Positions 27,125-61,705 of a stretch of DNA of 64,000 bases are shown here, piece after piece. The position numbers and the translations under genes are program-made. The number at the start of each line of letters is the position of its first letter. The stretch's first letter is position 1. The stretch is from NCBI RefSeq assembly GCF_000027125.1, contig NC_017626.1. One strand, 5' to 3'. The DNA is from Escherichia coli 042. Lineage in GTDB: Bacteria; Pseudomonadota; Gammaproteobacteria; Enterobacterales; Enterobacteriaceae. Below the pieces are notes generated by a model. It did no database searches and had not been told where the DNA came from. It saw nothing but the letters and a program-made list of their open reading frames with translations.

Positions 27125-27200
27125 GCCCGGATAGCTCAGTCGGTAGAGCAGGGGATTGAAAATCCCCGTGTCCTTGGTTCGATTCCGAGTCCGGGCACCA
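27125..27200 (+). tRNA. pheV: tRNA-Phe (anticodon GAA)
   Basis: GCCCGGATAGCTCAGTCGGTAGAGCAGGGGATTGAAAATCCCCGTGTCCTTGGTTCGATTCCGAGTCCGGGCACCA; 76 nt, CCA end, GAA anticodon in loop. Confidence 0.95.
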
Positions 27201-30481: not shown

Positions 30482-30632
30482 CGGAGTATATCGACAACAT
30501 TATTGTGAAGAGAATAAAAATCAGAAGTCTCCTGTGAAACAGATAACAGACAACCCTGCAGTATAATTACTGCAGGGAGTCTTCGTTTAATTACAGAAGA
30601 TGGGTAATTATTATCTTTCAGGAGCAGTTTTG

Positions 30633-31373: not shown

Positions 31374-31597
31374 TTCAATCATCTCCGCTATCACTTTCCC
31401 CGAACGATAAATGGGGTTGCTCATTCTAAAACCATGCAAAAGATAGGGTAAAAGGAATGTTTTCGATCGAATCGATCGATAAAATCGATCGTACCCGATA
31501 AAGTTTTCTTATCGTACCCATAAAAATGGTAAGGGCTGGTTTAAGAGGTAATCGCAGCGGCATGGAAGTATTAAGACCAAAACAGCACGAGATAAAG

Positions 31598-34320: not shown

Positions 34321-34323
34321 TGA

Positions 34324-39283: not shown

Positions 39284-39922
39284 TCAGCGAACCGTCCATG
39301 CCGGACTGAAATCCTCTTCCAGAAACAGCTCCGTCAGCCCGCTAATCTGTTTCAACCTGAGAACTTCATCCTGGTCCATACCCAGCTCCGTACCAATACG
39401 TTCATCCGTCCAGCCCAGCCGCGACAGGTCCCTGACAATATCAGACATTGAAGTTATCTGGTGCTTCCCCCTGGCCCGGTTATGTCTAATGGTTGCAGCA
39501 ATACGTGAGGCCTGTCCCTTTCTTTCCGGATTAATACAGGTCACTGGCAACCAGCCCTTCAGGCGTTTTCCCGTACCTGCTTCCCTGCCCAGTAATTGAC
39601 GATGAAAACCATCCACGACCAGATAATGCTCCTTCTCTTCCGAGACAACCACAGGCTGCGTGAACCCATCCTGCTCCAGTGAATGTTTCAGCAGTTTCTT
39701 CTCACCCGGCGCCATGACATTGGGGTTATAATCGTTGGCCACCACCTCATCTGCTTTCACCCACAGCACACAGTCCACAGGCTCCTGTGCAAATGGACTG
39801 ACCTCATGAAGCACCCTGCGCAGATGATTCAGGGCCTGTATGGCCTCTTCTTCTGGTCGTTCCTGGCTGAAGTACTGACGAATCATGTTGCTCAGTATCT
39901 CCGGTGTCACAGAATCCCCCAT
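39284..39922 (-). CDS. ibrB: ParB/Srx-like nuclease-domain protein (IbrB-like)
   Basis: 212 aa; ParB N-terminal-type motif region VVVDGFHRQLLGREAG...IRHNRARGKHQ; start overlaps upstream gene by 16 nt. Confidence 0.6.
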   Translation of the reverse strand: MGDSVTPEILSNMIRQYFSQERPEEEAIQALNHLRRVLHEVSPFAQEPVDCVLWVKADEVVANDYNPNVMAPGEKKLLKHSLEQDGFTQPVVVSEEKEHYLVVDGFHRQLLGREAGTGKRLKGWLPVTCINPERKGQASRIAATIRHNRARGKHQITSMSDIVRDLSRLGWTDERIGTELGMDQDEVLRLKQISGLTELFLEEDFSPAWTVR

Positions 39923-41139
39923 TCCTTCCTCCTTTCTTTCATACGCTGCAGATAACGTTCATAGTGCCGGGGTTTGTTCGGACTGAAGGAGAGGGTACGG
40001 CACCAGAAATCATTCTTTATGAGAGTCTTACAGATACGTCGCCAGGACGGAATATCCCGGCTCCCCAAGTCATTCTCCTGTTCATCCGGGATGTCATCCG
40101 GGAAGCCCCGCGTCTGATACCAGCGCAGATAGACAGCTATCTTGTTGCGGTAATGTTCTGCCGTTCTTTCCGGCATCACATCCAGCAGAAACATCGCATA
40201 GCTGCGCCAGGTATGATGGGCTGGTTTTGATATGCGCTTACGCAGGGCAAAATAAGCCCCGCTTTCATTGGCATAAAGTGCCCCGCTGGCAGCCCCTGAC
40301 ACCCGCTCACACATCCTGGCCCAGGTTTCCGGCTCCAGAACATGGTAAAGCCACAGTCCCTTACGTTGTTCAGGACCAAAAGGTTCACAGACACGCATGT
40401 TGCGTAACGGTACGCCGGCACGGTACATCAGGTCATACAGGGGATTGTAGATGGCACGGGTTCTGGTGTGATATATCCAGATATCACGAGTTTTCCAGTC
40501 ATACAGCGGATACATGGTGTAGTAAAACCCTTCAGGCGATGCCGTGGTCCAGGGCTTATCATCGGCGTATCTCAGTTTGCGCTGGGATACCAGTCCCATG
40601 AACCGGTTAAGGGACTCATCCGCACGGACACCGGTCAGTACTGCCACACCACATTTATTGTCTGCAAACCAGGAAGAAAATGCCGGAACAAATTCTTCAA
40701 ACGTCATGGCATACCGGTAAAAGGGAAAATACGCCATATCTGTAATGGCCCCCTCCGGTGGCTGGCGAACCCACTTCACACCAGACTCCCAGCATATCCA
40801 CTCCGGCTGAAACTGAGAAACACCGTTTACCGTGGTCAGGGGAAGTGCCACCCAGTAAAAGGTTTCCGTCACATCATGGTACATTTCCCGCATCTTCTGA
40901 ATATGTTCAATGGTGCACTGGTACTGAGCCTCCCAGTCAATGAACAGTACAGAGAAACGACGTTTTTTCCTGCGGGCCACATCAGCCAAAAGATGGAAAA
41001 GCACGGTGGAATCTTTACCACCGGAAAAAGAGAGACAAACTGATGGAAATGTTTCAAAAATCCACTCAATACGAGCAATTGCTGCACGCAGAACATTCTC
41101 TCCAGTAAGGACTTTCTCCGTTAAAAAATTATCATTCAT
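39907..41139 (-). CDS. ibrA: PAPS-reductase-like (PP-loop ATP pyrophosphatase) protein with C-terminal extension (IbrA-like)
   Basis: 410 aa; PP-loop SFSGGKDSTVLFHL near N-terminus, long C-terminal domain; gene pair architecture matches IbrA/IbrB (YbdN/YbdM-like) as I recall it. Confidence 0.65.
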   Translation of the reverse strand: MNDNFLTEKVLTGENVLRAAIARIEWIFETFPSVCLSFSGGKDSTVLFHLLADVARRKKRRFSVLFIDWEAQYQCTIEHIQKMREMYHDVTETFYWVALPLTTVNGVSQFQPEWICWESGVKWVRQPPEGAITDMAYFPFYRYAMTFEEFVPAFSSWFADNKCGVAVLTGVRADESLNRFMGLVSQRKLRYADDKPWTTASPEGFYYTMYPLYDWKTRDIWIYHTRTRAIYNPLYDLMYRAGVPLRNMRVCEPFGPEQRKGLWLYHVLEPETWARMCERVSGAASGALYANESGAYFALRKRISKPAHHTWRSYAMFLLDVMPERTAEHYRNKIAVYLRWYQTRGFPDDIPDEQENDLGSRDIPSWRRICKTLIKNDFWCRTLSFSPNKPRHYERYLQRMKERRKEWGIL

Positions 41140-42040: not shown

Positions 42041-42964
42041 TTATATAAAACAGTAAAAGTGAATCAGCTTAACAAATGCATCTTTCATTTGTTTTTGCTG
42101 CTGCTCGCTTCCATTCTGGTTGCGGACTTCACCATAGTGACACAACTGTTCTTCTGCCAGGATATGCCGGTTAAAAGCCTGCATGATGCCAGACACCTCC
42201 GTTTTCAGCTCACTGACCGTCATGTATTTTCCCCGCTGTTCATCCGGACGGTTCAGGCGCTCAGCCAACAGCTGTAAGCGGGTCATGCCTTCGTTCCAGC
42301 CAGTCATCGCCTCTTCCGGGAGCGCACGACTCCTTGCACTCTTCTGCCAGTTATCCACCATTTCCTGAACACGAGGATTGTCGGGGAAAAGTACCATCAG
42401 TTGCTGCAGCAATTGCACACTGCGTTGCAGGTTGTATGCCGGGGGGAATTCTGTCAGTCGCGTTATCTGCTGACCGGAAAGGGTTATCCACTCTGACGCA
42501 TGATTTAACAGTGTTCTGCTGAGCTGCATCATCTGGTCTGCTGAAAGCACATCCGGTGAGGGTGTCAGCAGCGCCCTGAGTTGCTGCTCCGCCGGTGATG
42601 GCTGTGTCAGAAACTGCCATCCCGGAATGGCCACGCAGACCGCCAGCAATGCCGTACAGACACCTGTAACAAACGTTTTCAGAAACGTGAGCGGGGATTT
42701 TTGAAGGAAGAGTGTGGGCTCTGTTTTTGTTTCAGAAACAACATACACCAGACGGGAGTGCGGCAGGGTCTGATGTTCCTGCACATCCGGAGCTTCAAGC
42801 CTGAGTGCCTGCGCCAGTAGCGTTACCGGAGACGATACTTCCCCCTGCACAGGCTGGTTCTCCAGGCGGGTGATATATCCCTTCACCATGGCTTCCGGTA
42901 AAGCCACTTTACTGCTCTGTTTAAGTTCGTGCCAAGCCTGCGTATTTTCATGGAAGGAGATCAC
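42041..42964 (-). CDS. hypothetical membrane protein (possible C-terminal portion of an ImpA/VasL-like protein)
   Basis: 307 aa with central TM helix (LTFLKTFVTGVCTALLAVCVAIPGW); start overlaps the upstream ImpA-N-like ORF by 17 nt in another frame. Confidence 0.4.
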   Translation of the reverse strand: MISFHENTQAWHELKQSSKVALPEAMVKGYITRLENQPVQGEVSSPVTLLAQALRLEAPDVQEHQTLPHSRLVYVVSETKTEPTLFLQKSPLTFLKTFVTGVCTALLAVCVAIPGWQFLTQPSPAEQQLRALLTPSPDVLSADQMMQLSRTLLNHASEWITLSGQQITRLTEFPPAYNLQRSVQLLQQLMVLFPDNPRVQEMVDNWQKSARSRALPEEAMTGWNEGMTRLQLLAERLNRPDEQRGKYMTVSELKTEVSGIMQAFNRHILAEEQLCHYGEVRNQNGSEQQQKQMKDAFVKLIHFYCFI

Positions 42965-43388
42965 TCAGTGTCTTCAGGAATGTTTCGGTCTGATACAGCA
43001 GGGGCAGGTTGTCACGGTTATCCGGAGGCATGGCCCGGAGCGTTTTTTGCAGACGGTTGAACAGACCGGTAATAATTTCCAGCCGGGAGTGTGTATTCAG
43101 CGGCCACATCACTGACCAGTGATGCCGGGTCAGCGCAGCAATCAGAGCCAGCCCTTCATTCAGACCACTTAACCCTGTTGTATGCATCCGGGCAATGGTG
43201 TACCAGGATGCCGTCTGTAATTCCACGCCATTGTGTTCATACAGACGCAGGCAGAGCGTTTCCACGTAACGCCAGTCCACATCAGGGCGTGCCGGGTGGG
43301 TCAGTTTGCTGATTTCATCGCGCAGGGCAGCATAATCCGGTAATGACCGGGGGTCACCACCGGTTTTCAGTTTCACTTCAGAAGTCAT
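42948..43388 (-). CDS. ImpA-N-domain-like protein (TssA/VasL N-terminal-like)
   Basis: 146 aa; GGDPRSLPDYAALRDEISKL...DVDWRYVETLCLRLY...ASWYTIA...GLSGLNEGLALIAAL...W pattern resembles the ImpA N-terminal domain of T6SS TssA/VasL proteins (from memory). Confidence 0.4.
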   Translation of the reverse strand: MTSEVKLKTGGDPRSLPDYAALRDEISKLTHPARPDVDWRYVETLCLRLYEHNGVELQTASWYTIARMHTTGLSGLNEGLALIAALTRHHWSVMWPLNTHSRLEIITGLFNRLQKTLRAMPPDNRDNLPLLYQTETFLKTLSDLLP

Positions 43389-48108: not shown

Positions 48109-48657
48109 TCACTGAGCTGTAATCAATGTACAGCGCTGTACCGGACGATGGGTAATGGCGGTCACAACCGGTAACCCCAGAGACAATGCGACTGTTTTTA
48201 ACGCAACATACTGACCGGATGTATCACCCCGGGCAACCCGAAAACACCTTTCCACCCGGCATTGTCCGCCAGCACTTATCACCTGCCAGCTATGTTGCAG
48301 TAAATCCACCACTTGCGAACATTGTTCATCAACTGTGACACTGGCTCGCGGGTGACAAATACTCGTCTGGCTGAGCAGCAACAGGCATCGAATTGTTGCT
48401 CCTTCATGTTGTTCCCGCAACCAGCGTAATACCACCGGAGAGGATGGACTGGCAGTGTGATTACGCTCAGTAATACGTTCATGCAGTTGTCGATAAAAGG
48501 AAGTACAGAATGCCTGAATCTGTTGCCCGTTGATGTTTCCTTCAGCCGAATGGAGCGTGAAGTGGACTGCCAGCAGACGCGGCCAGTGGTCCACCGCCTG
48601 CTGAACAAAACGCCGGATGTCTCCCGGCTCTGAAATTAAGGCTTCGGTTATTTGCAC
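48109..48657 (-). CDS. hypothetical protein
   Basis: 182-aa ORF with GTG start at 48657; its 5' end and upstream region are duplicated at 61420..61514. Confidence 0.45.
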   Translation of the reverse strand: MQITEALISEPGDIRRFVQQAVDHWPRLLAVHFTLHSAEGNINGQQIQAFCTSFYRQLHERITERNHTASPSSPVVLRWLREQHEGATIRCLLLLSQTSICHPRASVTVDEQCSQVVDLLQHSWQVISAGGQCRVERCFRVARGDTSGQYVALKTVALSLGLPVVTAITHRPVQRCTLITAQ

Positions 48658-48732
48658 GAAATGTTCCTTTTCAAACCCTGTTGAATTTTGTTAAGCCAGT
48701 GCAGACACAGTAAAGCGCGCATCAACACCTGA
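48641..48732. repeat. left copy of ~95-bp imperfect direct repeat flanking the microcin cluster
   Basis: gcttcggttatttgcac...tgttgaattttgttaagcc.gtgcagacaca...gcgcatcaacacc shared with 61420..61514 (identical blocks of 17, 19 and 11 nt). Confidence 0.7.
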
Positions 48733-49087
48733 AATGATGGTTTTATTCAGAGTATATGACTTTCTTTTACCCGCTCAAGATACGTTCCCTAGCGATATCA
48801 TCAGAAGTTTATGTGTTGTGTATCCATCCATATTAATCTGGTTCCAGTTTTCGGTATATGTCATGAGGAAACATTACAAATATATTCTGGAGCGGAGAAA
48901 GGAAATTGAAACCGTTTCAGAAAGGTTGATACGTGAGGCTGATACGAGAGAATATGAACTATGGCGTCCTGCCCGTCGTTTTTTCTCCATTCTTTTTATT
49001 GTTCTATTAGTTTATATTCATTCACTGATAACAACTATAAAATAAAAATTATGGCTGTTCTGATACCGGAGAAGAAACGTTCATTCT

Positions 49088-49806
49088 ATGGTTACCTCTT
49101 CCTGTTATATAAAAATTTTAAATAACAAGCAAGGGAATATAAATGGAAATAACAAAAAATGCAACATAAAAACAGTCATCAGCGGCTGCTTTTTAATGTT
49201 TACTTTATCATTTTCTATTACCTTTATTCCTGCATTCCTTACAAACAGGCAGGAACTTATATCCAGGGGACTTCTTGTTCCAGCATTATTTCTTGCTGAA
49301 TTTCTAATTCTTGTTCCACTGTATTTTATTTTCTTCCGAAAAAGAGAAGGATTAGGAAGAGGTTCTTTTCGACCGGATGTTTTTTACTCTTTTCTCTTTA
49401 ATAATGATTATTCAGTTATTTGTCCCTTATCTGCTGGCAGTGAGGAAAACGGAAGAATGGATGATCTCGCAAATGTCTTTTTCTGAGGCCATTTTATGTT
49501 TCTTCTGTACTTCTATGTTCCTGTATATGAAGAGATTGTATTTCGAGGGTGTTTTTTTAATTCTTTATAATTCTGGTTTAATGACAATATTTACATCTCT
49601 GCCATTGTAACATCAGTCATATTCTCTGCATTGCATCTACAATATACTGACTTTCGTACATTTTTTATGCTCTTTTTAGTATCGTTAGTTCTTATTAGCG
49701 CACAAATAAAGTCGAATGGTCTGTTAATGCCCATATTACTTCACATGGCGATGAATGCAGTCATAGCAGGAATACAATATCTAGCTTATATCAGTTATTC
49801 CCATTA
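49088..49806 (+). pseudogene. possible CPBP (CAAX-protease/Abi)-family membrane protein, apparently frameshifted
   Basis: Three successive overlapping frames of hydrophobic ORFs; the last (49617..49806) reads ...FSALHLQYTDF...LLHMAMNAVIAG, resembling CPBP motifs 2 and 3; motif 1 not clearly seen. Confidence 0.3.
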
Positions 49807-50002
49807 ACAGAGCATTTTCTGTTACAATCTCATATGATAAAAATTAAACGGACTAGCATTGTTACTATGCGGTATGCATAAAATGATAAACGTTCGGAGG
49901 AGCCTAACTTAAACCATTACATAGGCATCATTAACAATATAAGGTTTAATTTCCACTCCCCGCAGACGAAGAAGCACTTGATGTACATCTGCCGGATCCA
50001 AA

Positions 50003-50224
50003 CTAGGATGATAATCCTATACCTGAGGGAGACATGGAGGGACTAACCGTCGCAGTCGTTGCCCATGAATGTACTTTATCACCTATATAAGCCCCTGCAA
50101 TAGAACCAAATCCCGGGCTAATAAACGTACCTGCAAGTGAACCAATAGCAATTAATTCTGCCTGCCCGTCATTCCCGTCACCTCCAGATATTTGTTTTAT
50201 TTCATTTTCAGATAGTTTTCTCAT
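50003..50224 (-). CDS. mcmA: microcin M precursor (class IIb siderophore-microcin)
   Basis: MRKLSENEIKQISGG double-glycine leader and Ser-rich C-terminus ...MSPSGIGLSS; recognised as microcin M precursor; ATG at 50224 with aaggtg RBS; the track ORF extends in-frame upstream from a TTG. Confidence 0.8.
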   Translation of the reverse strand: MRKLSENEIKQISGGDGNDGQAELIAIGSLAGTFISPGFGSIAGAYIGDKVHSWATTATVSPSMSPSGIGLSS

Positions 50225-50285
50225 TTCAACACCTTCGCTATAAAATTTGTGAAGAAGTAAAAATTCACGTTTAACCACAACGATA

Positions 50286-50441
50286 AAAATGTAACTACAA
50301 GTGATAAAAAAACATATATAGATTAAAAAAATTATATCTATAGTAATAACTAAGATATAATGACACCGGAATATAAAAGAACAGATAATTGATAACAAAA
50401 GCAATCACTGTTATTTTTATATCCTTCTTAACCTCCCCCAT
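50286..50441 (-). CDS. candidate microcin M immunity peptide (51 aa, hydrophobic)
   Basis: Hand-translated ORF MGEVKKDIKITVIAFVINYLFFYIPVSLYLSYYYRYNFFNLYMFFYHL between mchF and mcmA with ggag RBS; below the track cutoff; the known immunity protein length was not verified. Confidence 0.35.
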
Positions 50442-50476
50442 CGACAAAACTCCTTACAAAGTTACACCAGTGGATT

Positions 50477-52573
50477 TTAAATAGAAATAATCCTGTCAAC
50501 AGTTCTCAACGTAGTTTCTCTGTGTGCAATAATCACCCGGGTGATATTCATTTTTTTTATGGCAGCATTCACGAAACGTTCACTTTCTGTATCAAGAGAA
50601 CTTGTAGCCTCATCCATAAATAATATTCCAGGTTTCCGGTATAAAGCTCGGGCAATGAATATACGCTGTTTTTGACCGCCGGAAAGACCTTCCCCCAGTT
50701 CACCTATTAACGTTTCATACCCCATTGGCATTTTCATTATCACATCATGAATATGACTTGCTCTGGCACATTCTGTCATCCATTCGTCGTCTGTTTCTTC
50801 TGCAAACCCACAGATATTTTCACGAATTGATCCTGAAAATAGCCGGTCGTCCTGCATAACACAGGCTATCATACGGTGATAATTATTTATTCCAAGTTGA
50901 CGTATATCCGTGCCATTAACCAGTACTTTTCCACTATCTGGTTCAAACAGTCCACATAATACTTTCATTAATGTGGTTTTTCCGGCACCGGAGGCACCAG
51001 TTATAGCCACACTTTCTCCCGGAGCCACAGACAAATTCAGACCACTGAATACCTGTGCTGACTGGCTGTCATACCGGTAGCTTAAATCAGTGGTTTCCAG
51101 TGAAACCGGGCTCATGTCAGCAACGATTTCAATTTCCGGTTTCTTTTCTTCCTTTTCATGTAGTGCAATATCTGCAATGCGCTCATTATGCAGACTCATT
51201 ATTCTCAGTTGAAGAAGAAAACTGGTCAGCGAAGCAACCCGATCCGAAAACTGCCCACGAAAAGAACCAAATGCCACAAACATCCCTATTGTCATCTGAT
51301 TATCGATCACAAGGCTTGCACCCAGCCATAAAATCGCCACCTGATCACAGGCGGCAACAAAAGTATTTATCCCCCCGAAGAGCAAATCCATCTTGGTTAA
51401 CTTAATACCTGAATTGATCGCATCTATTTTCAGGTTAAGCCAGTGTGTTCCCCGGATCCCAGCCATACCTTGGATTTTTACCGTGGCAATACCATACAGG
51501 CTTTCCATAAAATAGGAGCTGGCCCGGGCCCCCCTGACAAGAGTTTCTTCCGATATTTGCCGGTAATAGCCGTATGTCACCAGACGAATAAGAACGTAAA
51601 CCATGGTAAAACCGAGCACTATCCAGGTAAGATATCCTCCATATAACAGCATCATCACAAAAACACCCACAACCATAATACTGTCCATGATTGCCCCAAC
51701 CACACAGGTGGTAAAGGTGGCCCTCAAAGTGTCAAGGGAGCCAAAACGCGACTGGATATCACCTAATTTACGGCGTTCAAAAAACGCCAGCGGCAGTCTG
51801 AGAAGATGGTTAAACAGACCCGACTGCCACTGTATATTGATGAGCGTGCTCATAACCAGTGAGGACCATGCACGCAGCATACTCACCGCGGCCCTGAGCA
51901 ATATAAAGAACATCAGGCCAGCAGAAATAAGCGTCAGCAGCCCTCTGTCCCCCGCCGGAATCGCATGATCCATAACCAGCTGAGTCCCCACCGGCATTAC
52001 CAGATTGATTGCTTCAATTACAACTGACAGACAGAAAATTTTCGCCAGTGTTCTTTTAATACCGTAAATACTGTTAATCAGTGAACGGAGACTTATGCGG
52101 ATCTGCTGGGTTTCCGCCAGGAATTCACTTCCAGGCCAGACCTCAAGTGCAATGCCCGTAAAATACCGGCTCATTTCCTCCCGACCGAGATATCTTCTGC
52201 CTCTGGCCGGATCATGCAGTACATAACGGTTACGCTTTACGCTGACCAGCACGACAAAGTGACTGAAATCCCAGTGGAGAATACACGGCATTTTGAGGGC
52301 ACCAAGTTCATCCAGCTCCAGTGAAAGAGCCCGGGTGACCATCCCCAGCTGCTCCGCTATTCCATTGATTCCTGCAAGGTTTGCTCCACGGGCCGAGAGA
52401 TTAAACTTCCGGCGAAGAGATATCAGGTCAATATTCTTACCAAAATGACCGCATATCATTGCCAGGCAGGCCAGTCCACATTCAGCGGTCTCCGTCTGAT
52501 GAATAACCGGAACACGACGTCGCCAGCGCATATCAAGCTGATTTATAATTTGTCTGAAACTCCCGTTAGTCAT
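50477..52573 (-). CDS. mchF: microcin ABC exporter with N-terminal C39 peptidase domain (CvaB homolog)
   Basis: Track ORF 50477..52591; from [42 protein letters not shown] closely matches CvaB/MchF; Walker [10 protein letters not shown], signature LSGGQ. Confidence 0.85.
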
Positions 52574-53840
52574 TGAGCGGTCCTGTTGCACTGTGTTTCA
52601 TGTCATAGAAAGGAGAAAGCATCCACTGGTAAATACGCCTTTTTTCCAGAAATAGTGTACTTTCGGCTTTCATTCCATTTTCCAGAGGGAGGTATTTTTC
52701 GTCATATCTGATAATCTGCTTTTCAGGCATCGCAATGACTTTATACCAGGGAACAGAGGCGCCCGGCGTATTCTGTGGTGCACCCTTATAGGTCAACATT
52801 TCCTGTGTTGACGCAGGAGTCCTGGATATAGTTTTAACCGTAGCAGAGAACTGCCCAAATTTTTCTGCCGGAAAGGCTTCATAACGAATATTCACTTTGT
52901 CACCAGCCGAAATATAAGGAACAGCATCATTTGGGACCCAGAGAATAAGATAATAGTTTTCAATGTTCTCAGGAATAACCTGCAGAAGGCTGTCTCCGGT
53001 ATTGACCATTTGCCCGACAGTGACACTCAGGGAGTCAACTTTCCCGTCAGTCAACGCCCGGATAATAATTTCGCCCTCCACATCAGTGTTAACCAGTTCT
53101 TTCTGTAACTCGTACCGTTGCAGTTCCATCTGGTAGATACGGTTATCAAAATCTGCAGCCTGAGTCTGAATCTGACTCTCCAGAGTGGTTATCTGCAGGG
53201 CATTCTGTTCGTTCTGTCCGCTCAGGCTGAGAAGATTGTTTTGTTGCTGATAATATAATGCCACCTGGTTAGTTAACTGATCTTTATTAATCAGCCCTTT
53301 TGCCTGATAGTTTCTGTAATTCTCCATATTGTTTTTCATTATTTTTATCCCTTCCTCTGCACGCTGTATAATATCTGATGAGCGACGAAACGCATCTGTG
53401 TATTGCAGACGTTGTTTTTCCAGGGTATCTAACGTTATTTTTTTACTTTCTTCCAGACGGGAAATAATGTTGTCCACACGAACCAGCTGATTTTCTATAT
53501 CCCGCCGATGATTATCAGTGACAATACCACTACGTGTACTTTTACTGATGTCAATCAGATAAACAGGATCCCCTTTTTTTATCAACTGCCCTTCATGAAC
53601 AAATTGCCTGACAACAAATCCCTGTACACCTGAATATATATTGACAGCTCTTGGCCAGGTTGTGACCTCACCACTGACATTAACACGGCGGCTATAGGTA
53701 CCAACAATAATGAACATCAGAAATGCCGTAATAAACACAATGCTTCCCAGCATGATTAACCATAGTGGTATTCCGGGAAGTAATATTGCCCGTCCCTGCC
53801 ACTTCATTTTTCTGTTTTCTAAAGCATCCTGACGAAACAA
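52566..53840 (-). CDS. mchE: microcin secretion membrane fusion protein (CvaA/HlyD family)
   Basis: 424 aa; [40 protein letters not shown] matches CvaA/MchE N-terminus; overlaps mchF start. Confidence 0.85.
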
Positions 53841-53992
53841 AATAGCTCCTCTTACTCACACTTTTCCTGTAATACCTTCACTGATTAACCGAAACGCTAT
53901 AATCAAAGCCAGAAAATACAGAGTCCTGTCAAAATAGTATCAGCGATGCATTTACCCCGTAATTTACAATTATCTCTGTATCTTCAGAGGTA

Positions 53993-54445
53993 CTACGTTT
54001 TATGCAGCCGCTCAGGGATGTATGTCACAATTTTCTTTCGCCTGCTTAACCATCGTACTTCTCCTTCCCCCCATGGCTGAAGCTGTATGAGATAGTCAAT
54101 AACTTTTCGACCAAAGCCTGGTTTACAACAGAAATCCAGGATCCAGATCCTTCCATCTTCATTCCATTCAGACGGATGCAACCTGAATTCTGGATCCCTG
54201 AGCAGGCGCGCTTCCGTATCAGCCTCAAGATATGCCCAGGTTATATACGCCAGTGGAAAACCTCGTGAATCAAACAGGAATTTAATCTGATTATGCTGTA
54301 TCGCATATTCAGTCCAGTATTGAATGGTTAACACCGGATACAGACTGTAATTACGATTGTAGAGCATACAACTGACCGCAAAACCTATCTGTTCATAAAC
54401 AGTCCATTCATCTTTTCCTCTGATGGTTTCCCTTATATAAGACAT
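53993..54445 (-). CDS. mchD: microcin maturation protein (MchD/MceI-like)
   Basis: 150-aa ORF between mchC and mchE in the canonical mchCDEF order. Confidence 0.55.
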   Translation of the reverse strand: MSYIRETIRGKDEWTVYEQIGFAVSCMLYNRNYSLYPVLTIQYWTEYAIQHNQIKFLFDSRGFPLAYITWAYLEADTEARLLRDPEFRLHPSEWNEDGRIWILDFCCKPGFGRKVIDYLIQLQPWGEGEVRWLSRRKKIVTYIPERLHKT

Positions 54446-54470
54446 GATTACTATTTCCCTTATATATTTA

Positions 54471-56021
54471 TTACACTGTGTTTCTTATCGGTTCAAGATA
54501 TCCAAATGCATCTCTGGAAAACTTAAGCATAAAATTTTTCATATCAGAAATTGCTTCTTGTAAAAAAAGGGGATCATCGCCATGATTATCCAGCAGGATG
54601 GCAATTTTTTCGCACATATTCTCTTTCCTCAGCTCTTCCCTGGGTTGCAGCCTTTTCATGGTATGATGTTCAATTTCTTTCAGGAGTAATGAAGCATTTA
54701 TCTGACGTCTGGTACTGCCTTGCGTCAGCCAGTGGATAGTCTGGGAAAAACACTGTTGTGCAACGGTGAAATAAACATCATTCTTGATGCTACTATTCAG
54801 TGCCTGCTTTTGATTATGCCTATGATGGATTAGCGTCACAACCAACTTTTGCAATGGTGAACCATCCTGATTGACAATATCTTGGGCATGTGATTTCTCG
54901 CAGTATTTATTGAGTAATGCAACAAAACTGTTAACCAGTTGTTTCAATATATCAGGTATCTCTTTTTGTGTTATAAATTCTCCAGGAATACCCAACAGTT
55001 CTAGATAACAGTAATAACATGCTTCATGAAAAGTTTTCTGAAATATCTCCTCAACCTTCAAACGGGCTGCAAGAGTGAAGTCAGGGTCAAACATATATTT
55101 TCCGATATACAAGCAGAGATCAGACAGCCCTTGCATAAGTACCATCGGTTCTTTTGCCAGTTCAGCTAATCTTAGTTTATACCCAAAATCAGCTGGGGAA
55201 TCTCCCGGAAACAGACAACTGAGTCCGTTAAAATCCATTAATCTGCCATCCATTGCAATATTAGAAGGAGAAGTTGTCAATCTCAGGAAACGTGTTCGAC
55301 AAAATGCCATTTGCCAGGCCTCACGACGTGCCAGTTCACATAATCCCTCAATGCAATAAATCCGGGGATCAGTTCGTGCTTCAGCATCAATTTCTTCCGG
55401 TGGTACAGGTAGATATCCTGGCAGCTTGTGGATCACAGATCTAACCCGACAGGCATCGTGAATTAACTGACTGGAATACTCCGGTTTTACTTGGAAGTAT
55501 GGTGCCCGTTCAAAATGCGCCGGGCGAACAACAGGCTCACGTACCAACAGGGCTCTTCGTGATTTCATACCGGAGCGCTCAAATGCCTTTTCAGTATAGA
55601 GATCTGTAAGTAAAACCGCCCGAACCCGCACAGCACTATAAGGTAATATTTGAGCCAGTACTTCTCCCCACAAAGCCTCATATATTGCATGAACAGCGCC
55701 GAGTGCACCATTAGAATGACGTTCGTCAGTACCTTCACCAACCAACGGATTACTTCCTATTCCTTTAACCTGGTAGTTACCATCAAACCCACAACGTGCA
55801 CCACCTCCATTACGCTGAATACCACTGCCACCATAGCGCTCTGCATGGAACACTTTGGCAGAAGCCGTACTGTCAGGATCGATAATATAACTGCAGGCAT
55901 TTTGCAGCTCGCCTGGATTTCTGACATCCTCTGCACACCAGATTAATGAGGACTTGATCTGCCTGGCAGTGAAAGGCACCAGGTTTTCATTCAGTTCAGA
56001 AAGTGAACACTGATGACTCAT
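54471..56021 (-). CDS. mchC: microcin maturation protein (MchC/MceJ-like)
   Basis: 516-aa ORF immediately downstream of mchB, size and position as for MchC. Confidence 0.55.
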   Translation of the reverse strand: MSHQCSLSELNENLVPFTARQIKSSLIWCAEDVRNPGELQNACSYIIDPDSTASAKVFHAERYGGSGIQRNGGGARCGFDGNYQVKGIGSNPLVGEGTDERHSNGALGAVHAIYEALWGEVLAQILPYSAVRVRAVLLTDLYTEKAFERSGMKSRRALLVREPVVRPAHFERAPYFQVKPEYSSQLIHDACRVRSVIHKLPGYLPVPPEEIDAEARTDPRIYCIEGLCELARREAWQMAFCRTRFLRLTTSPSNIAMDGRLMDFNGLSCLFPGDSPADFGYKLRLAELAKEPMVLMQGLSDLCLYIGKYMFDPDFTLAARLKVEEIFQKTFHEACYYCYLELLGIPGEFITQKEIPDILKQLVNSFVALLNKYCEKSHAQDIVNQDGSPLQKLVVTLIHHRHNQKQALNSSIKNDVYFTVAQQCFSQTIHWLTQGSTRRQINASLLLKEIEHHTMKRLQPREELRKENMCEKIAILLDNHGDDPLFLQEAISDMKNFMLKFSRDAFGYLEPIRNTV

Positions 56022-56291
56022 CTGGCAGTATTCTCCGTTTTAATTTTCATAAAAGAGTGTTCATAAAAGAGCAAGTAAGTGTCCTGACAGCTTCTTCCTT
56101 ATTACAGTAAAACTCTATTAATTACACATAAATTAATAATTATTTATCAACGACTGTAAATCATATCTTCATCAGTAAAGTGTTGAACATAAAAACACAC
56201 TTATAAATGGATCTTCTATCTGCTTTAAACGAAAGGGATATATTTTACAGGCACTATCGAAAAAGTGCCTGTAAAATAAATAAAATTATAA

Positions 56292-56519
56292 TTAGCTACC
56301 GCCACCAGCAGAAGAACTGGCACTACCACTTCCCACGGTCGAGCCAATTGCTGTTGTCAAACCGGCAGATACGGCTCCAACTACAACCCCAAGTGGACCA
56401 CCAGGTATTCCGGCGAGAGCTCCAACAATAGCTGCAGCACCTGCGGCATTAGCTGAAGTCGCTGGCGCACCTCCCGCCCCGGAAATATATCTTAACTGTG
56501 ATTCTGTTATTTCTCGCAT
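56292..56519 (-). CDS. mchB: microcin H47 precursor
   Basis: MREITESQLRYISGAGGAPATSANAAGAAAIVGALAGIPGGPLGVVVGAVSAGLTTAIGSTVGSGSASSSAGGGS; recognised as MchB; track ORF starts 22 codons upstream. Confidence 0.85.
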   Translation of the reverse strand: MREITESQLRYISGAGGAPATSANAAGAAAIVGALAGIPGGPLGVVVGAVSAGLTTAIGSTVGSGSASSSAGGGS

Positions 56520-56535
56520 ATAAACTCCATCATAT

Positions 56536-56745
56536 TTAACTTCCGTTTTTCCAGCCTGACCAGACCAGAATCTTTCGAATCCCATGAATCAGCTCAATAA
56601 AACCAAGAAATATTATAAAGCTTAGAAAAACGTCAACATAAGAATTCCCTTCGCCAACAATCCGAAGGGATGAAAGTGAAACCAATAAGATAGTAAGAGG
56701 TAAACTAAATATAGCCGTCAATTGGTACAGTTTTTTATAACTCAT
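56536..56745 (-). CDS. mchI: microcin H47 immunity protein
   Basis: 69-aa hydrophobic ORF MSYKKLYQLTAIFSLPLTILLVSLSSLRIVGEG... directly upstream of mchB. Confidence 0.8.
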   Translation of the reverse strand: MSYKKLYQLTAIFSLPLTILLVSLSSLRIVGEGNSYVDVFLSFIIFLGFIELIHGIRKILVWSGWKNGS

Positions 56746-57156
56746 TAATACCTACCTGTTGCTTTATTTTCATTATGAAAAGTTACCAAATCTTAGCGCT
56801 TCAGTCAGGGGAGTCAGGTCATCGATAAAGAATATTCCAGTAGAGTGGCGCTCATGATCAAAGACAACAGCAAAGTTGATGACAGTGCTGACCGACTGTC
56901 ATTTACAGTAACCCTGTTTGTAGCAAATTCCATCTTACCAGACCTCACCCAGACAAAGACAAAAGAGAATGATTGTTATTTACTTTTCAAAAAAAGTGTC
57001 ATATTGTCCATATAAAGTCAAGAGGTATTTTACGTTATGTAACTGATGCAATTGTTAGTCAGGATCTCATGGTTGTCGCTCATGTATAACCTGAGACTTG
57101 AACGTACACTAATAGCACTGACGGTCATACATCGGGAAATGTGAGGAGGCATAAGA

Positions 57157-57402
57157 ATGAATTGTGATAATAATCACAGAAATGAAGAATTCATTGTTAC
57201 CTTTGATAAAGGCAACAAGCAAGACAATTCAAGACGAAAACACGATAATTTTCCTATAGAGGTAGAATCCTCCGTAGAGCTGGAGACACACTGTATCACA
57301 AATAATAAGTCGGCTTCCGGTATAGTAACACATGACTATGATGCCGATTATATTTGTGGTTGTGGTGAAATTATGTGTCCTGGTTGCGGTCATGACCTAT
57401 AA
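57157..57402 (+). CDS. small Cys-motif peptide (81 aa), function unknown
   Basis: ORF ending ...YICGCGEIMCPGCGHDL (CxC-x5-CPGC); located between the mchXIB and I47 modules. Confidence 0.3.
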   Translation: MNCDNNHRNEEFIVTFDKGNKQDNSRRKHDNFPIEVESSVELETHCITNNKSASGIVTHDYDADYICGCGEIMCPGCGHDL

Positions 57403-57556
57403 CAAACATATTTGCAAACTGATACCTGATCAGGTACAAGCCTGTTGATTATTATGCTGAATATTCCAGTTATCAATCCATCGATATGAACATTAACAAG
57501 AAAAAACATATATTGTTTATCTGAATATTTATCGATGGAAAACCAAAGGGGAAAGT

Positions 57557-57991
57557 ATGTATCTTACGAAAAAGATTATAATAAGTATGATGTTTATATT
57601 ACCATCTGCTGCATTTTCATCAGATCCACCTCCCCTTCAACAATCGTTAGAAAAAACAACCTATTTTTCTATAGGTATGAATGGGTTTATAGGCTATCAG
57701 AGCGAAGGGGAAAAATTATACACACACATTCTTACATTAGATAATCCCGAAGAGATATTTAAAAATATAATAAAAAATAGAAAGTCAACTAAGGAGTCTA
57801 AAATTTATGCTGCTTGTGGGCTATATTATTTAAACGTAGAAAATATAGAGTCATTGTTTAATGAAAATGATAAACAAGAATATGTGTCTGTCTTAAGAGG
57901 GGATATTTTAACAAAAATAAAACTGAATGATATTCTGAATTCTGTGATAATAAATGGTTGCAACACCAAATTAATATCTGAACATAAATGA
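57557..57991 (+). CDS. secreted protein upstream of microcin I47 gene (possible immunity/accessory protein)
   Basis: 144 aa with signal peptide MYLTKKIIISMMFILPSAAFS; precedes the I47 precursor by 16 nt; AT-rich codon usage. Confidence 0.4.
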   Translation: MYLTKKIIISMMFILPSAAFSSDPPPLQQSLEKTTYFSIGMNGFIGYQSEGEKLYTHILTLDNPEEIFKNIIKNRKSTKESKIYAACGLYYLNVENIESLFNENDKQEYVSVLRGDILTKIKLNDILNSVIINGCNTKLISEHK

Positions 57992-58007
57992 GCAGGAGGT
58001 TTTTAAA

Positions 58008-58241
58008 ATGAGAGAAATATCAGATAACATGCTTGATTCCGTGAAAGGAGGGATGAATCTTAATGGATTACCTGCTTCTACTAATGTAATAGATCTACGT
58101 GGAAAAGATATGGGAACATATATTGATGCTAATGGAGCATGCTGGGCTCCGGATACTCCATCCATCATCATGTATCCGGGGGGAAGTGGACCTTCTTATA
58201 GTATGAGTAGTTCCACATCCAGTGCAAACAGCGGCAGTTAA
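58008..58241 (+). CDS. mchS2: microcin I47 precursor
   Basis: MREISDNMLDSVKGG double-glycine leader, Ser-rich C-terminus ...SMSSSTSSANSGS. Confidence 0.6.
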   Translation: MREISDNMLDSVKGGMNLNGLPASTNVIDLRGKDMGTYIDANGACWAPDTPSIIMYPGGSGPSYSMSSSTSSANSGS

Positions 58242-58529
58242 ATAAATACCATCCGGCTATGCCGGAGGGTATTTATGATGTGCCTGTAAGACTCTACTTC
58301 TGTCGTCTCTTTACAAAGGCATATGATCTGACATTTTGTACCAGACATCTTAACGAGAGCCTTTTCATATATTACTTACATACGTGAAATCTACAGTATA
58401 AAGCAAAAATTTTATTAAACCTGTTTTATATTTATCATCAATACAACAGATTTAATTCCGGAAAGTCACTCATCACCCCTTGAATGAACGTCATTTGATG
58501 TATTATTCTTACACTTGGATTAATTTAAG

Positions 58530-59804
58530 ATGATACCTATGAAAAACTATCTTTTCCAGACTCCCGAAGATATTTGTGTACAGTTAAAAAAAATGACACA
58601 TCCTGTCACAATAAGAACAACAGATATTGCTAATTTCTGGCACTATCTTGAGTCAGCAACTCTTCCGGTGATCACAAAAAGCACCACTACAGAAAATCGG
58701 GAGGTTACATTTCTGTGGCGCTCAGAGAAAGCAGTGCAAGGCGTATATCTTCGCCTGAATCGTGTTACAGATAAAAAAGATGTCAAAAAAGGACTAATGA
58801 CTCATATCCCTTCGACAGATATCTGGATGCTGACACTGGTGTTACCAGCTTCATATCGGGGCTCATACTCATTTATAGAAATTCCCACAGATATGACACA
58901 AAAAGACATATTTCAACTAGGAAGTCGCTTCTCTCCATTACCCGGTAAATCTGATCCATTTAACAAAACAGCAGAAATAAATATACGAGGATTCGGAGAA
59001 TCAGTCCTTTCTCTTGATATGGCTCCTGAACAAAAGGAATGGGATGATACTTCCCATAAATGTACAGGTATTCTTTCAACATTACATTCCTTTGTTGCAG
59101 GATATCAACGCCGGATTCGTTTATATTTTCCCCAGAATCCAACATCAGTACCTCTTGGATTACTTGTGTTACCTGATGCTGAAATATGGTTTGACCGGAT
59201 GGATATTACCCGGGCATTAGATATGGCCATTACCACTGGTCATATTGCGCCAATGGCAATTATGGGGATAGACAATATTAATGAATCTGATCGTATGAAT
59301 ATACTGGGAGGCAATAAAGAACTTATCTTTGATATAGCGGAAAATCTGATACCCCAGTTATACAGAGACTACCCGAATATCGTATGGGCTGGTCGTTCTA
59401 ATACTATACTGGCCGGTCAGAGCCTCGGTGGAGTGACAGCACTGATGGCAGCTATATATGCGTCGACAACATTTGGTACAATCATTAGCCACTCACCTTC
59501 AATGTGGTGGAACCCTGACCAGGGCAGCCCGATTTTGTTTACTGAGAATGATATCTCCTGGGTAAGTGAGCAGATACTTTCAGCGCCTCCGAAAGATGTA
59601 AATATCCAACTTGGAGTCGGTTCTTTAGAAGGTACAACCGTCTCACATGTTCAGCGGTTGCATCAGTCGTTAATCGCAGCAGGTTTGGAAAGTAACCTCA
59701 CTGTCTATGCCGGTGGTCATGATTATGCCTGGTGGCGCGGAGCAATTATTGATGCATTAGCAAATTATAATTGCAGGAAGATATCAGATAATAACTTTGT
59801 GTAA
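58530..59804 (+). CDS. mchS1: enterobactin/salmochelin esterase (IroD/Fes-like)
   Basis: 424 aa; alpha/beta-hydrolase GQSLGG nucleophile motif; position next to the IroB-like glycosyltransferase. Confidence 0.65.
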   Translation: MIPMKNYLFQTPEDICVQLKKMTHPVTIRTTDIANFWHYLESATLPVITKSTTTENREVTFLWRSEKAVQGVYLRLNRVTDKKDVKKGLMTHIPSTDIWMLTLVLPASYRGSYSFIEIPTDMTQKDIFQLGSRFSPLPGKSDPFNKTAEINIRGFGESVLSLDMAPEQKEWDDTSHKCTGILSTLHSFVAGYQRRIRLYFPQNPTSVPLGLLVLPDAEIWFDRMDITRALDMAITTGHIAPMAIMGIDNINESDRMNILGGNKELIFDIAENLIPQLYRDYPNIVWAGRSNTILAGQSLGGVTALMAAIYASTTFGTIISHSPSMWWNPDQGSPILFTENDISWVSEQILSAPPKDVNIQLGVGSLEGTTVSHVQRLHQSLIAAGLESNLTVYAGGHDYAWWRGAIIDALANYNCRKISDNNFV

Positions 59805-59952
59805 GCGATTATCTCATCGTACCGATAACGCTTTCTGCAACATTATAACGGGAGACATACTCATTTATTTAGTTATGTCCTTCATCATATAAGTGAAGGA
59901 CATTCTATTACTCATGACATTTTTCGTCGATAATATCAGCAATACTATACAA

Positions 59953-61071
59953 TTATTTCCCGTTGTTTTTTAATTTTCTCATCAAAACCTCTGCGATCTC
60001 TGCAGGACTGGGTTGTTCAGCCATTTCAGCGGCTACCTGATCTGAACAGAAGCGTAGTGAATCATCATAAAGCAGGCGATTTACCAAATCACTGGTCAGT
60101 CCATGCTTGTCCGGAATAATCCCACACCCACGCATCGCAACAATTTCTGCATTAACAGAGCGATCTGCACCTTCGCCAAACACAATCTGTGGTATCCCAC
60201 TATACAACGCTGTCAGGGTATTACCTGCGCCACCATGATGAATAAATCCATCAGCTCCATTAAGGAATACACCCATAGGTATCCAGTCAACCAGACGTAC
60301 ATTTGATGGTAGTTTTCGTAATCCAGTACGAGCATTTATTGCAAGTTGCAAAATGATATCAGCATCAACTTCATTTGCAGAATCCATAACCCATGAAATC
60401 AGCTCCAGACCATCAACCATTGGTTTTACAGTGCCAAGGCTGATGAGTAAACGTTTTCGATCAGAATCCCTGTCCCACCATGTTTCCTTTACAGCACCTC
60501 CGTTATAAGGAATATATCTCATTGAGATAACCGGTTCTTCAGCATTTTTAAGAATGCTCATACTTGGGGGAGCAACATCAATCCATGCTAAATCACATAG
60601 TGGACCGCTGACTCCATGCCGCCTGTAAGCATTGCTTAAAGAACGGTTTAACATCTGAATATGGGCAGATGTATGCGCGAATCCAACAGCCAGCATCACT
60701 GAAGGAATTCTATATTTAGCAGCAACCAATGGGCCTGCCGGACCAAGCGGGGGATAGACTATTAAATCTGGCCTCCATTTTCCTGCAAAATCGATGAGGT
60801 TATCTGCCATTTCATCGCTAAAAAAAGAGAAATGACCAATAATATTACTTTTTTTCCTCAACTCTTCCTGATGGCGATATCCAGCCTCTGAATCTAAACT
60901 TGGAACTGCATCAAAAACAACCAGTCCAGCTTCTGCTGCTTTATTCGCGAATTTGCCAGCACTACTAATTACTACATCATGTCCGATTACACGAAAGGCC
61001 TGAGCCAGAGAAATCAATGGGTATAACAAACCGTACAGCGGTGGGCCAATAAAAAGAATACGTTTTCGCAT
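59953..61071 (-). CDS. mchA: enterobactin C-glucosyltransferase (IroB-like GT1)
   Basis: 372 aa; GT1 signature HHGGAGNTLTALYSGIPQIVFGEGADRSVNAEIV. Confidence 0.7.
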   Translation of the reverse strand: MRKRILFIGPPLYGLLYPLISLAQAFRVIGHDVVISSAGKFANKAAEAGLVVFDAVPSLDSEAGYRHQEELRKKSNIIGHFSFFSDEMADNLIDFAGKWRPDLIVYPPLGPAGPLVAAKYRIPSVMLAVGFAHTSAHIQMLNRSLSNAYRRHGVSGPLCDLAWIDVAPPSMSILKNAEEPVISMRYIPYNGGAVKETWWDRDSDRKRLLISLGTVKPMVDGLELISWVMDSANEVDADIILQLAINARTGLRKLPSNVRLVDWIPMGVFLNGADGFIHHGGAGNTLTALYSGIPQIVFGEGADRSVNAEIVAMRGCGIIPDKHGLTSDLVNRLLYDDSLRFCSDQVAAEMAEQPSPAEIAEVLMRKLKNNGK

Positions 61072-61419
61072 TAAAAAAGTCCGTCTTCTGCTTACCTGTT
61101 TATTTTTCTATCGCTAAGAAAACATAATTAATATTATTTTTATGTGAGCTTATGCACAAAAATAACCAAGTATCTTATCTTCTGGTAGAGATACAGGATA
61201 CAGTTTGTAGGAGCTTTCTTTTTTGAACAATGAGTTACAGGACAGTTATGCCAACCTACCGGAATCAGTATCACACCAATAAATGACAGATCATACCTGA
61301 AATTTGAATTAACAGGCATCATGAATGTCAATAGTCTAAGCGGTTACTACTTACATCGCTTGCATAAATACTAAACACTGACTAGAAAAGTATTGGATAA
61401 CCCCGTCACTAAAAGTAAC

Positions 61420-61514
61420 GCTTCGGTTATTTGCACAGAATACGACTCCTTCAGACTCTGTTGAATTTTGTTAAGCCGGTGCAGACACACGGGAAGGTGC
61501 GCATCAACACCGGT
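61420..61514. repeat. right copy of ~95-bp imperfect direct repeat (contains truncated 5' end of a 48109..48657-like gene)
   Basis: Shares gcttcggttatttgcac / tgttgaattttgttaagcc / gtgcagacaca / gcgcatcaacacc blocks with 48641..48732; the minus-strand reading VQITEA... here stops after 19 codons. Confidence 0.7.
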
Positions 61515-61705
61515 GTAATGCCAGTTATAAACAATGTGAATGGAATGACGAATCAGTCAGGAAAGAGCTACAACCTGCTGGCTGACCGGAGAGGGTCAGC
61601 AGGAAAATGAACGGTAATGTCGCCAGCACCAGGGACAGGGCTGATTTCCGCAATACCAGCGCCGGCATTTTGCACATTGCCAGCGTACCGGCATCACAAC
61701 ACGTT

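Follow-up and report, generated by a model that had tools for sequence, protein, structure and literature searches.

A probable copy of the microcin H47 genomic island, with a predicted dead microcin M module, in a pheV-integrated island of Escherichia coli

Results

Gene content of the islet

The 64,000-nucleotide stretch of Escherichia coli DNA analysed here (the window) carries a siderophore-microcin islet at about 48.6-61.5 kb, whose genes and features are collected in Table 1. An earlier note, made from the sequence alone, had placed the locus at 50003-61071, which is a narrower span, and had overlooked mchX and mchS4. Twelve genes of the islet are intact, namely mchF, mchE, mchD, mchC, mchB, mchI, mchX, mchS4, mchS3, mchS2, mchS1 and mchA. 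The reading frames which the note had listed, that is mchI, mchB, mchC, mchD, mchE, mchF, the mcmA ORF and mchA on the minus strand and the 144-aa protein (MchS3), the I47 precursor (MchS2) and the esterase (MchS1) on the plus strand, were all recovered as uninterrupted ORFs. MchX, MchS4, MchS3, MchS2, MchI, MchE and MchF are identical, residue for residue, to entries named as E. coli Mch proteins, the UniRef name in the case of MchF being 'Probable microcin-H47 secretion/processing ATP-binding protein MchF', and MchA is an exact match to the 'microcin activation protein' of E. coli 042. It should be added that in the PGAP annotation of an identical record mchS2, mchX and mchS4 are left unannotated.

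Table 1. Features of the islet and its surroundings, with positions in the window
Feature	Position	Strand	Basis or remark
pheV tRNA-Phe	27125-27200
Shango defence genes SngA/B/C	32011-37835
Imperfect direct repeat, mcmA side (attR of Azpiroz et al. 2011)	48612-48745		direct-repeat families D1/D2, pairwise alignment; ends approximate
mcmM, accessory gene of microcin M (CPBP-family intramembrane protease), pseudogene	49088-49807	+	alignment to Nissle 1917
mcmA, microcin M precursor, inactivated	49946-50224	-	CAG to TAG at codon 74, TAG at 50003-50005 (sequence, translation)
mcmA, live ORF (73 aa)	50003-50224	-
mcmA, unused tail	49946-50002	-
mcmI, microcin M immunity gene, frameshifted	50221-50441	-	T8 to T7 (-1) at 50306-50312; 48 aa vs 73
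mchF, ABC exporter with N-terminal C39 leader peptidase	50477-52573	-	Pfam Peptidase_C39, ABC_membrane, ABC_tran; intact, 698 aa
mchE, exporter component (HlyD-type membrane-fusion protein)	52566-53840	-	NCBIfam type_I_hlyD; exact MCHE_ECOLX; intact, 424 aa
mchD (MceI homologue)	53993-54445	-	Pfam HlyC acyltransferase family; identical to Nissle 1917 protein
mchC (MceJ homologue), partner of MchD	54471-56021	-	exact sequence named 'MchC protein'; intact, 516 aa
mchB, microcin H47 precursor, 75 aa	56292-56519	-	identical in Nissle 1917, STEC, ATCC 8739; PGAP 'microcin H47'
mchI, immunity protein for microcin H47, 69 aa	56536-56745	-	exact match MCHI_ECOLX
mchX, small regulatory ORF heading the mchX-mchI-mchB unit	56814-56933	-	exact match O86199, MCHX_ECOLX
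Fur-box-like site upstream of mchX	56965-56983		14/19 matches to GATAATGATAATCATTATC
mchS4, 81 aa	57157-57402	+	exact match Q712P8 'MchS4 protein'
mchS3 (mciI), 144 aa, signal-peptide-like N-terminus	57557-57991	+	NCBIfam MchS3 family, E 5e-41; exact Q712P9
mchS2 (mciA), microcin I47 precursor, 77 aa	58008-58241	+	exact match Q712Q0 'MchS2 protein'
Terminator-like hairpin at end of mchS3-mchS2 unit	58252-58266	+	consensus scan only
mchS1 (mcmK), IroD/Fes-type enterobactin esterase	58530-59804	+	Pfam Enterochelin_N, Esterase
mchA (mcmL), IroB-type enterobactin C-glucosyltransferase	59953-61071	-	Pfam EryCIII-like N and C domains
Imperfect direct repeat, mchA side (attL)	61390-61525		aligned pairwise with 48612-48745; ends approximate

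To classify the precursors we used the class IIb criteria of PMC11634061, which include a leader within the first ~15 residues that ends in GG or GA (criterion iii). Both MchB and MchS2 fall in this class, with a Ser/Gly-rich tail whose final residue is Ser: MchB has the 15-aa leader MREITESQLRYISGA, ending in GA, and the tail SASSSAGGGS, while MchS2 has the leader MREISDNMLDSVKGG, ending in GG, and the tail SSSTSSANSGS. The McmA leader, MRKLSENEIKQISGG, is also intact and ends in GG. A scan of the islet for further class IIb-like small ORFs gave none beyond MchB, MchS2 and McmA. Each intact precursor has an immunity gene beside it, the gap being 16 bp for mchI-mchB and likewise 16 bp for mchS3-mchS2 (criterion of at most 200 bp); MchS3 is reported as the microcin I47 immunity protein (PMC7472721, PMC6795089, PMC9542533).

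The other parts of a class IIb cluster, that is an IroB-type glucosyltransferase, an IroD-type esterase, a C39 ABC exporter and a HlyD-type adaptor, are also present, and the domains of MchF and MchE and the homologies of MchA and MchS1 bear out the shared export and salmochelin-type modification genes of the earlier note. MchA matches GT1 natural-product glycosyltransferase structures; its identity to IroB is 60-80% in 848 plasmid records (most of the matching ones) and 71.7% to an annotated iroB. MchS1 matches the enterochelin esterase structures 3mga and 2b20 and is ~57% identical to an annotated IroD. For MchC no significant Pfam family was obtained (best E 0.0058), and specific NCBIfam models were lacking for MchC, MchD, MchI, MchS2, MchX and MchS4. 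MchD and MchC are described as the siderophore attachment pair (PMC7472721); the pair is present here and its catalysis is predicted. A regulatory role is reported for mchX (PMC6071977), and MchS4 is reported to increase enterobactin production (PMC6071977, PMC10380612).

Inactivation of the microcin M genes

The microcin M genes, on the other side of the exporter genes, are all broken. The McmA protein has 73 aa as against 92 aa in Nissle 1917 and an STEC strain, a TAG having replaced Gln74, behind which 18 codons of the tail and the former stop now lie unused; position 50003, which had been taken as the boundary of mcmA, is thus the premature TAG and not the natural end of the gene. The conserved 19-residue end of McmA, which is the siderophore attachment tail QFGSGRGTSSASSSAGSGS, is missing and the protein now ends in ...SPSGIGLSS. 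Even the tail that would be obtained by read-through, FGSGRCTSSASSSAGSGN, carries G79C and S92N, so that its last residue is Asn and not Ser. The new C-terminus is Ser-rich by accident only and is not the conserved attachment tail, and the idea of Ser-rich attachment sites in all three precursors holds for MchB and MchS2 but fails for McmA. The PGAP name for the truncated product is only 'colicin V family bacteriocin', its Pfam class is colicin V/MccV-like, and the exact 73-aa sequence occurs on 780 contigs.

The 48-aa product of the frameshifted mcmI is an exact match to a UniRef entry called 'McmI (Microcin M immunity protein) truncated protein'. When compared with the intact 228-aa Nissle 1917 gene, mcmM shows indels of -9, -1, -2, -11 and +1 nt, four of these five being frame-breaking; PGAP flags it as 'frameshifted; internal stop' in a 100%-identical record, and UniRef lists a related fragment as 'McmM truncated protein'. 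On classifying 16 loci, the mcmA and mcmI lesions were found together in all 7 sequences that have either. The truncated nature of the McmI and McmA products is already recognised in public databases, and the microcin M genes of strain H47 are likewise described as truncated and non-functional (PMC3191183, Fig. 1 legend; PMC6795089). The microcin M module is most likely a dead remnant, its toxin, immunity and accessory genes having each been inactivated. The locus is accordingly not complete for microcin M, as the earlier note had held it to be: of its three precursors, MchB (H47) and MchS2 (I47) stand intact with their immunity genes, while McmA is cut short. Inactivating mutations in the precursor genes, named in that note as what would refute it, were found in one of the three (mcmA).

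Boundaries and genomic setting

The islet is flanked by imperfect direct repeats of ~130 bp that lie 12.78 kb apart. In 1026 genomes the islet flanks are joined across ~120 bp, which corresponds to one copy of the repeat and represents the empty site. The microcin H47 island is described as ~13 kb long, with imperfect direct repeats of ~145 bp and empty attC sites in other strains, and with excision and integration by site-specific recombination as an experimental property (PMC3191183); the flanking repeats and the 1026 empty-site genomes agree with this attL/attR/attC system. Among 5,426 complete genomes of E. coli, ~155 have most of the microcin locus.

The location in a pheV island and the nearby defence modules, both pointed out in the earlier note, are borne out by the tRNA gene, by the window's own flank mutY-mltC-nupG-speC-yqgA and by the Shango genes. 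It may be mentioned that the annotation of a 100%-identical locus in strain BEC1-S17-ESBL-09 gives pheU as the island site, with the first 27 kb of the window unmatched there; this site was dropped because the flank of the window itself is speC-yqgA-pheV. As the note had also stated, the window is free of iro and ent genes, none being annotated in near-identical records that span the whole of it.

Regulatory signals

A functional Fur box is reported upstream of mchX (PMC6071977, PMC7472721). In our scan the site near mchX is joint-best in the islet, the other 14/19 site lying inside mchE, and it is the only 14/19 site in the mchX/mchS4 intergenic region. Taken alone, however, the site is weak: the scan gave 18 sites with at least 13/19 matches as against ~7 in shuffled sequences, and such matches are common in AT-rich DNA. 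Promoter and terminator scans of the locus were not above shuffled sequence.

Discussion

Proposed working of the locus and other readings

The microcin H47 island has been known since the 1990s-2000s and has been reviewed repeatedly. As the island of E. coli is already described, its presence in the window is an ordinary find. At a probability of about 0.88, we read the region of ~48.6-61.5 kb as a copy of this known island, that is a 12.8-kb islet within a pheV-integrated host island. The genes present, their intactness and homologies, the limits of the islet and the three lesions are observed here, while chemistry, regulation, export route and production are taken from the literature. On this footing H47 and I47 are most likely the two siderophore-microcins made by the locus, which would use chromosomal enterobactin for both. 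We expect it to work as in strain H47 because the 12 non-M genes are uninterrupted, several proteins are identical to named ones and the domains fit the roles.

Under low iron, Fur repression at the mchX promoter would be lifted, and the precursors MchB (H47) and MchS2 (I47) would then be made alongside the immunity proteins MchI and MchS3. Enterobactin would be supplied by ent genes elsewhere on the chromosome, beyond the window, in keeping with the dependence on enterobactin from elsewhere that was proposed earlier and that we count as supported; MchS4 may raise the supply and MchA would C-glucosylate it. The glucosylated siderophore is predicted to be esterified by MchC/MchD to the C-terminal Ser of the conserved Ser/Gly tail and linearised by MchS1. 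Export would proceed via MchE/MchF and TolC, with the 15-residue leader cut by the C39 peptidase domain of MchF, and entry into competitors would be through catecholate-siderophore receptors. It is known that mciA/mciI from the H47-strain plasmid pEX2000, together with mchCDEFA, give active MccI47 (PMC9542533).

That the entire islet is a decaying, silent remnant from which this strain makes no microcin appears very unlikely: the M module has indeed decayed, and in strain L016, which has the same haplotype, mchE, mchC, mchS1 and mchA are also fragmented, but all 12 other genes are intact here and several proteins are identical to named E. coli Mch entries or to proteins of the producer Nissle 1917. 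A complete CA46-type locus yielding all three of microcins M, H47 and I47 is the least probable of the alternatives. The intact GG leader and Ser-rich end of the mcmA ORF and the CA46-type gene order (PMC7472721) would agree with it, but it is contradicted by the TAG in place of Gln74, by the loss of the 19-residue tail of the 92-aa McmA, by the Asn with which a read-through tail would close and by the frameshifts in mcmI and mcmM; as far as the sequence goes, this reading is already refuted.

It is also conceivable, though we consider it highly improbable, that the 73-aa McmA is not junk but still works: exported and freed of its leader, it would be a peptide of 58 residues with some antibacterial or other role. 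It might, for example, act as an unmodified colicin-V-like toxin or be an MchCD substrate modified at the new Ser-Ser end. McmA keeps its leader and N-terminal part, the product is placed by PGAP and Pfam in the colicin V/MccV-like class, loose class IIb criteria are passed and the exact sequence is common, although the 780-contig count may merely mirror clonal spread. Against this, the uptake of class II microcins is set by the C-terminal part (PMC10233263), a siderophore-microcin without its modification is weakly active (PMC7472721) and McmA has lost the conserved tail that is recognised for attachment. This haplotype also lacks a working copy of the cognate immunity gene, which is expected under joint decay; an unmodified McmA toxin, it may be proposed, would need no immunity as it could not re-enter the producer. 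We therefore retain the production of H47 and I47, beside a dead microcin M module, as the preferred reading.

There is little new biology in this, and the practical worth lies in annotation. When virulence or bacteriocin genes are typed in BLAST style, mcmA would be called present and the strain reported as a three-microcin producer, whereas the sequence predicts H47 and I47 only. For the mining of E. coli, this island type may serve as a natural source of MccI47 with a full in-cis maturation set; this microcin now attracts interest for use against carbapenem-resistant Klebsiella (PMC9542533).

Comparison with known systems

The H47 island (AJ009631) and its near-identical GI 2 copy in E. coli 042 (PMC3191183) share with the window the gene set, the order and the length of ~13 kb, and likewise have imperfect flanking direct repeats, empty attC sites and truncated microcin M genes. 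Protein identity is exact for MchX, MchS4, MchS3, MchS2, MchI, MchE, MchF and the truncated McmI; we found no protein-level difference from these islands, the sameness with the H47-strain prototype AJ009631 being drawn from exact protein matches and database names, and in the window the host island is at pheV. The 'archetypal' CA46 cluster (MccM, MccH47 and MccI47; Patzer 2003, Poey 2006, reviewed in PMC7472721) is built in the same way, with mcmL/mchA, mcmK/mchS1 and both the I47 and the H47 module, but its mcmI, mcmA and mcmM are intact and microcin M is made, whereas all three are inactivated in the window. The truncated cluster of Nissle 1917, CFT073 and ABU 83972 (serX island) has mchXIB, mchCDEF and mcmIA in common with the window. 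In Nissle 1917, MchB and MchD are identical to ours, while MchF, MchE, MchC and MchI each differ by 3-9 residues; it is without mchA, mchS1, mchS2 and mchS3 and has intact mcmA, mcmI and mcmM, which is the reverse of the pattern in the window, and it depends on IroB and ClbP (PMC6776366). The microcin E492 cluster of Klebsiella pneumoniae RYC492 (mceA-J) differs in its toxin and immunity genes and in operon layout, but follows the same biosynthetic logic, with a MceC/IroB-type glucosyltransferase, the MceD esterase, attachment by MceIJ, export by MceGH and Fur control via mceX (PMC6071977, PMC7472721).

Integrity of the microcin locus

The locus, as read from its sequence, encodes two intact siderophore-microcins and not the three (M, H47 and I47) of the complete locus described in an earlier note, a description that fails on lesions in all three genes of the microcin M module. 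The note's interval starts at 50003 with a TAG, which is codon 74 of mcmA and aligns with CAG in both Nissle 1917 and a STEC strain; translated through it the gene reads ...GIGLSS, stop, FGSGRCTSSASSSAGSGN, stop, and the 92-aa product is cut to 73 aa. The residues thus lost, QFGSGRGTSSASSSAGSGS, form the Ser/Gly tail that receives glucosylated enterobactin from MchCD (PMC7472721; PMC11634061 for the class IIb criteria). Judged by loose formal criteria, truncated McmA would still count as Ser-rich with a final Ser, which explains why its C-terminus was taken for an attachment site, but this new end is not the conserved tail. In the same alignment one T is missing from a T8 run of mcmI (50306-50312), which shortens the product from 73 to 48 aa. 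A separate comparison of mcmM with its intact Nissle counterpart shows indels of −9, −1, −2, −11 and +1 nt. Across 16 related loci, neither the mcmA nonsense codon nor the mcmI frameshift is seen without the other, and both are carried by the window and six loci; the 73-aa McmA is found on 780 contigs and the 48-aa McmI, already in UniRef as 'McmI (Microcin M immunity protein) truncated protein', on 697.

The other 12 microcin genes are unbroken ORFs with proper start codons on an ORF map of 48-64 kb (see the table), and the location, gene list and strands given earlier for this real locus are borne out. By exact-sequence look-up in UniProt, MchX is O86199 residue for residue, MchS4, MchS3 and MchS2 are Q712P8, Q712P9 and Q712Q0, MchI and MchE are MCHI_ECOLX and MCHE_ECOLX, MchF is 'Probable microcin-H47 secretion/processing ATP-binding protein MchF' and MchA is the E. 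coli 042 'microcin activation protein'; MchB and MchD have the same sequences as in the producer strain Nissle 1917. MchF carries Peptidase_C39, ABC_membrane and ABC_tran domains, MchE is HlyD-type, MchD belongs to the HlyC acyltransferase family, MchA has EryCIII-like GT1 domains (60-80% identity with IroB in 848 plasmid records), and MchS1 (~57% identity with annotated IroD) has Enterochelin_N and Esterase domains and matches Fes-type esterase structures. Four complete E. coli chromosomes are 100% identical to a 12.4-kb query spanning the locus, and 155 of 5,426 complete genomes match it over at least 80% of its length. It may be noted that PGAP leaves mchX, mchS4 and mchS2 unannotated in a 100%-identical RefSeq record; since mchS2, the I47 precursor gene, is among them, microcin I47 will be missed by annotation-based surveys.

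Features of the microcin islet and its host island
Feature	Coordinates	Strand	Remark
Phosphoethanolamine transferase (499 aa) and outer-membrane protein genes	28982-31439	−	directly after island integrase
SngA/B/C (Shango)	32011-37835	+	three-gene anti-phage system; PADLOC models
IbrB-like/PAPS-reductase (IbrA-like) pair; type VI secretion fragments (VasL domain, ImpA N-terminal domain)	39284-41139 and 42041-43388	−	pair has weak BrxP and DndC matches
NERD+UvrD helicase, 595 aa	43782-45569	−	candidate defence gene; PADLOC model C3a187, E 5e-140
mcmM	49088-49807		PGAP flag 'frameshifted; internal stop'
mchF	50477-52573	−	intact ORF
mchE	52566-53840	−	intact ORF
mchD	53993-54445	−	intact ORF
mchC	54471-56021	−	intact ORF
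mchB	56292-56519	−	intact ORF
mchI	56536-56745	−	intact ORF
mchX	56814-56933	−	intact ORF
mchS4	57157-57402	+	intact ORF
mchS3	57557-57991	+	intact ORF
mchS2	58008-58241	+	intact ORF
mchS1	58530-59804	+	intact ORF
mchA	59953-61071	−	intact ORF

Microcin M alleles in other strains

STEC and bovine strains (L004 14097-14375; also L007, L010, L012, L013 and L015) have a second 92-aa McmA allele with G79C and the end ...GSGN instead of ...GSGS, which therefore fails the class IIb 'final serine' criterion, although annotation treats it as intact microcin McmA; both changes are also present in the dead mcmA tail of the window. A 36-bp hairpin segment (AGCACCTGTTACAGGTGCT...) directly downstream of mcmA in Nissle 1917 (L003 14001-14658) is missing from the window (~49905-49915) and the STEC-type loci. 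ATCC 8739 (L005, 12181-13684), whose islet likewise lies in a pheV island, has mcmA interrupted by an IS3-family element after ~codon 61 with mcmI intact, an independent route to microcin M loss. Another strain (L016, LR134238.1, 4567-13062) shares the window's mcmA/mcmI null haplotype and has mchE, mchC, mchS1 and mchA in fragments; its islet seems to be decaying as a whole.

Islet boundaries and host island

Imperfect direct repeats at ~48612-48745 and ~61390-61525, spaced 12.78 kb, bound the islet. A query that joins the two outer flanks shows them adjacent in 1026 genomes, separated by ~120 bp that correspond to one repeat copy; this marks the islet as a discrete insertion. Its host island has pheV as integration site, with mutY-yggX-mltC-nupG-speC-yqgA-tRNA-Phe followed by an integrase gene. 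BEC1-S17-ESBL-09 (L002, NZ_AP022298.1) matches window 27077-50000 at 99.8% identity over 22.9 kb; its island is at pheU (dsbD-yjdC side) and that of the window and strain H3 at pheV, so one island type uses both Phe-tRNA genes. The proximity of the microcin locus to defence modules holds, as PADLOC finds Shango (E-values 9e-100, 4e-186 and 1e-277 for SngA, SngB and SngC) and the helicase candidate; PGAP names these only TerB-N protein, ATP-binding protein and DEAD/DEAH helicase, and '3'-5' exonuclease', respectively. The reported lack of iro and ent genes also stands, none being annotated in near-identical records spanning the window.

Proposed mechanism

The steps proposed here come from the literature, the window itself showing only that the genes are present and intact. 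Low iron would lift Fur repression at mchX, where a functional Fur box is reported (PMC6071977) and our own scan gives a Fur-like site with only a 14/19 match (56965-56983); mchX-mchI-mchB and mchS3-mchS2 would then be expressed. Enterobactin from chromosomal ent genes, the output of which MchS4 is reported to increase (PMC6071977, PMC10380612), would be glucosylated by MchA, joined to the C-terminal Ser by MchCD and linearised by MchS1 (PMC7472721). The peptides would leave through MchEF-TolC with cleavage of the leader, and may enter target cells via FepA, Cir or Fiu (PMC7472721). Expressed with mchCDEFA, the H47-strain genes yield MccI47 that is active on Enterobacteriaceae, carbapenem-resistant Klebsiella among them (PMC9542533).

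Comparison with known systems

The microcin locus is already known. The window agrees with the H47/042-type island in all respects tested, and its repeats correspond to attR and attL of the H47 genomic island, a 13-kb element (PMC3191183). From the 'archetypal' CA46 cluster it differs solely in its dead microcin M module, whereas the Nissle/CFT073 cluster is the reverse case, with the M module intact in Nissle but mchA, mchS1, mchS2 and mchS3 absent (PMC6776366).
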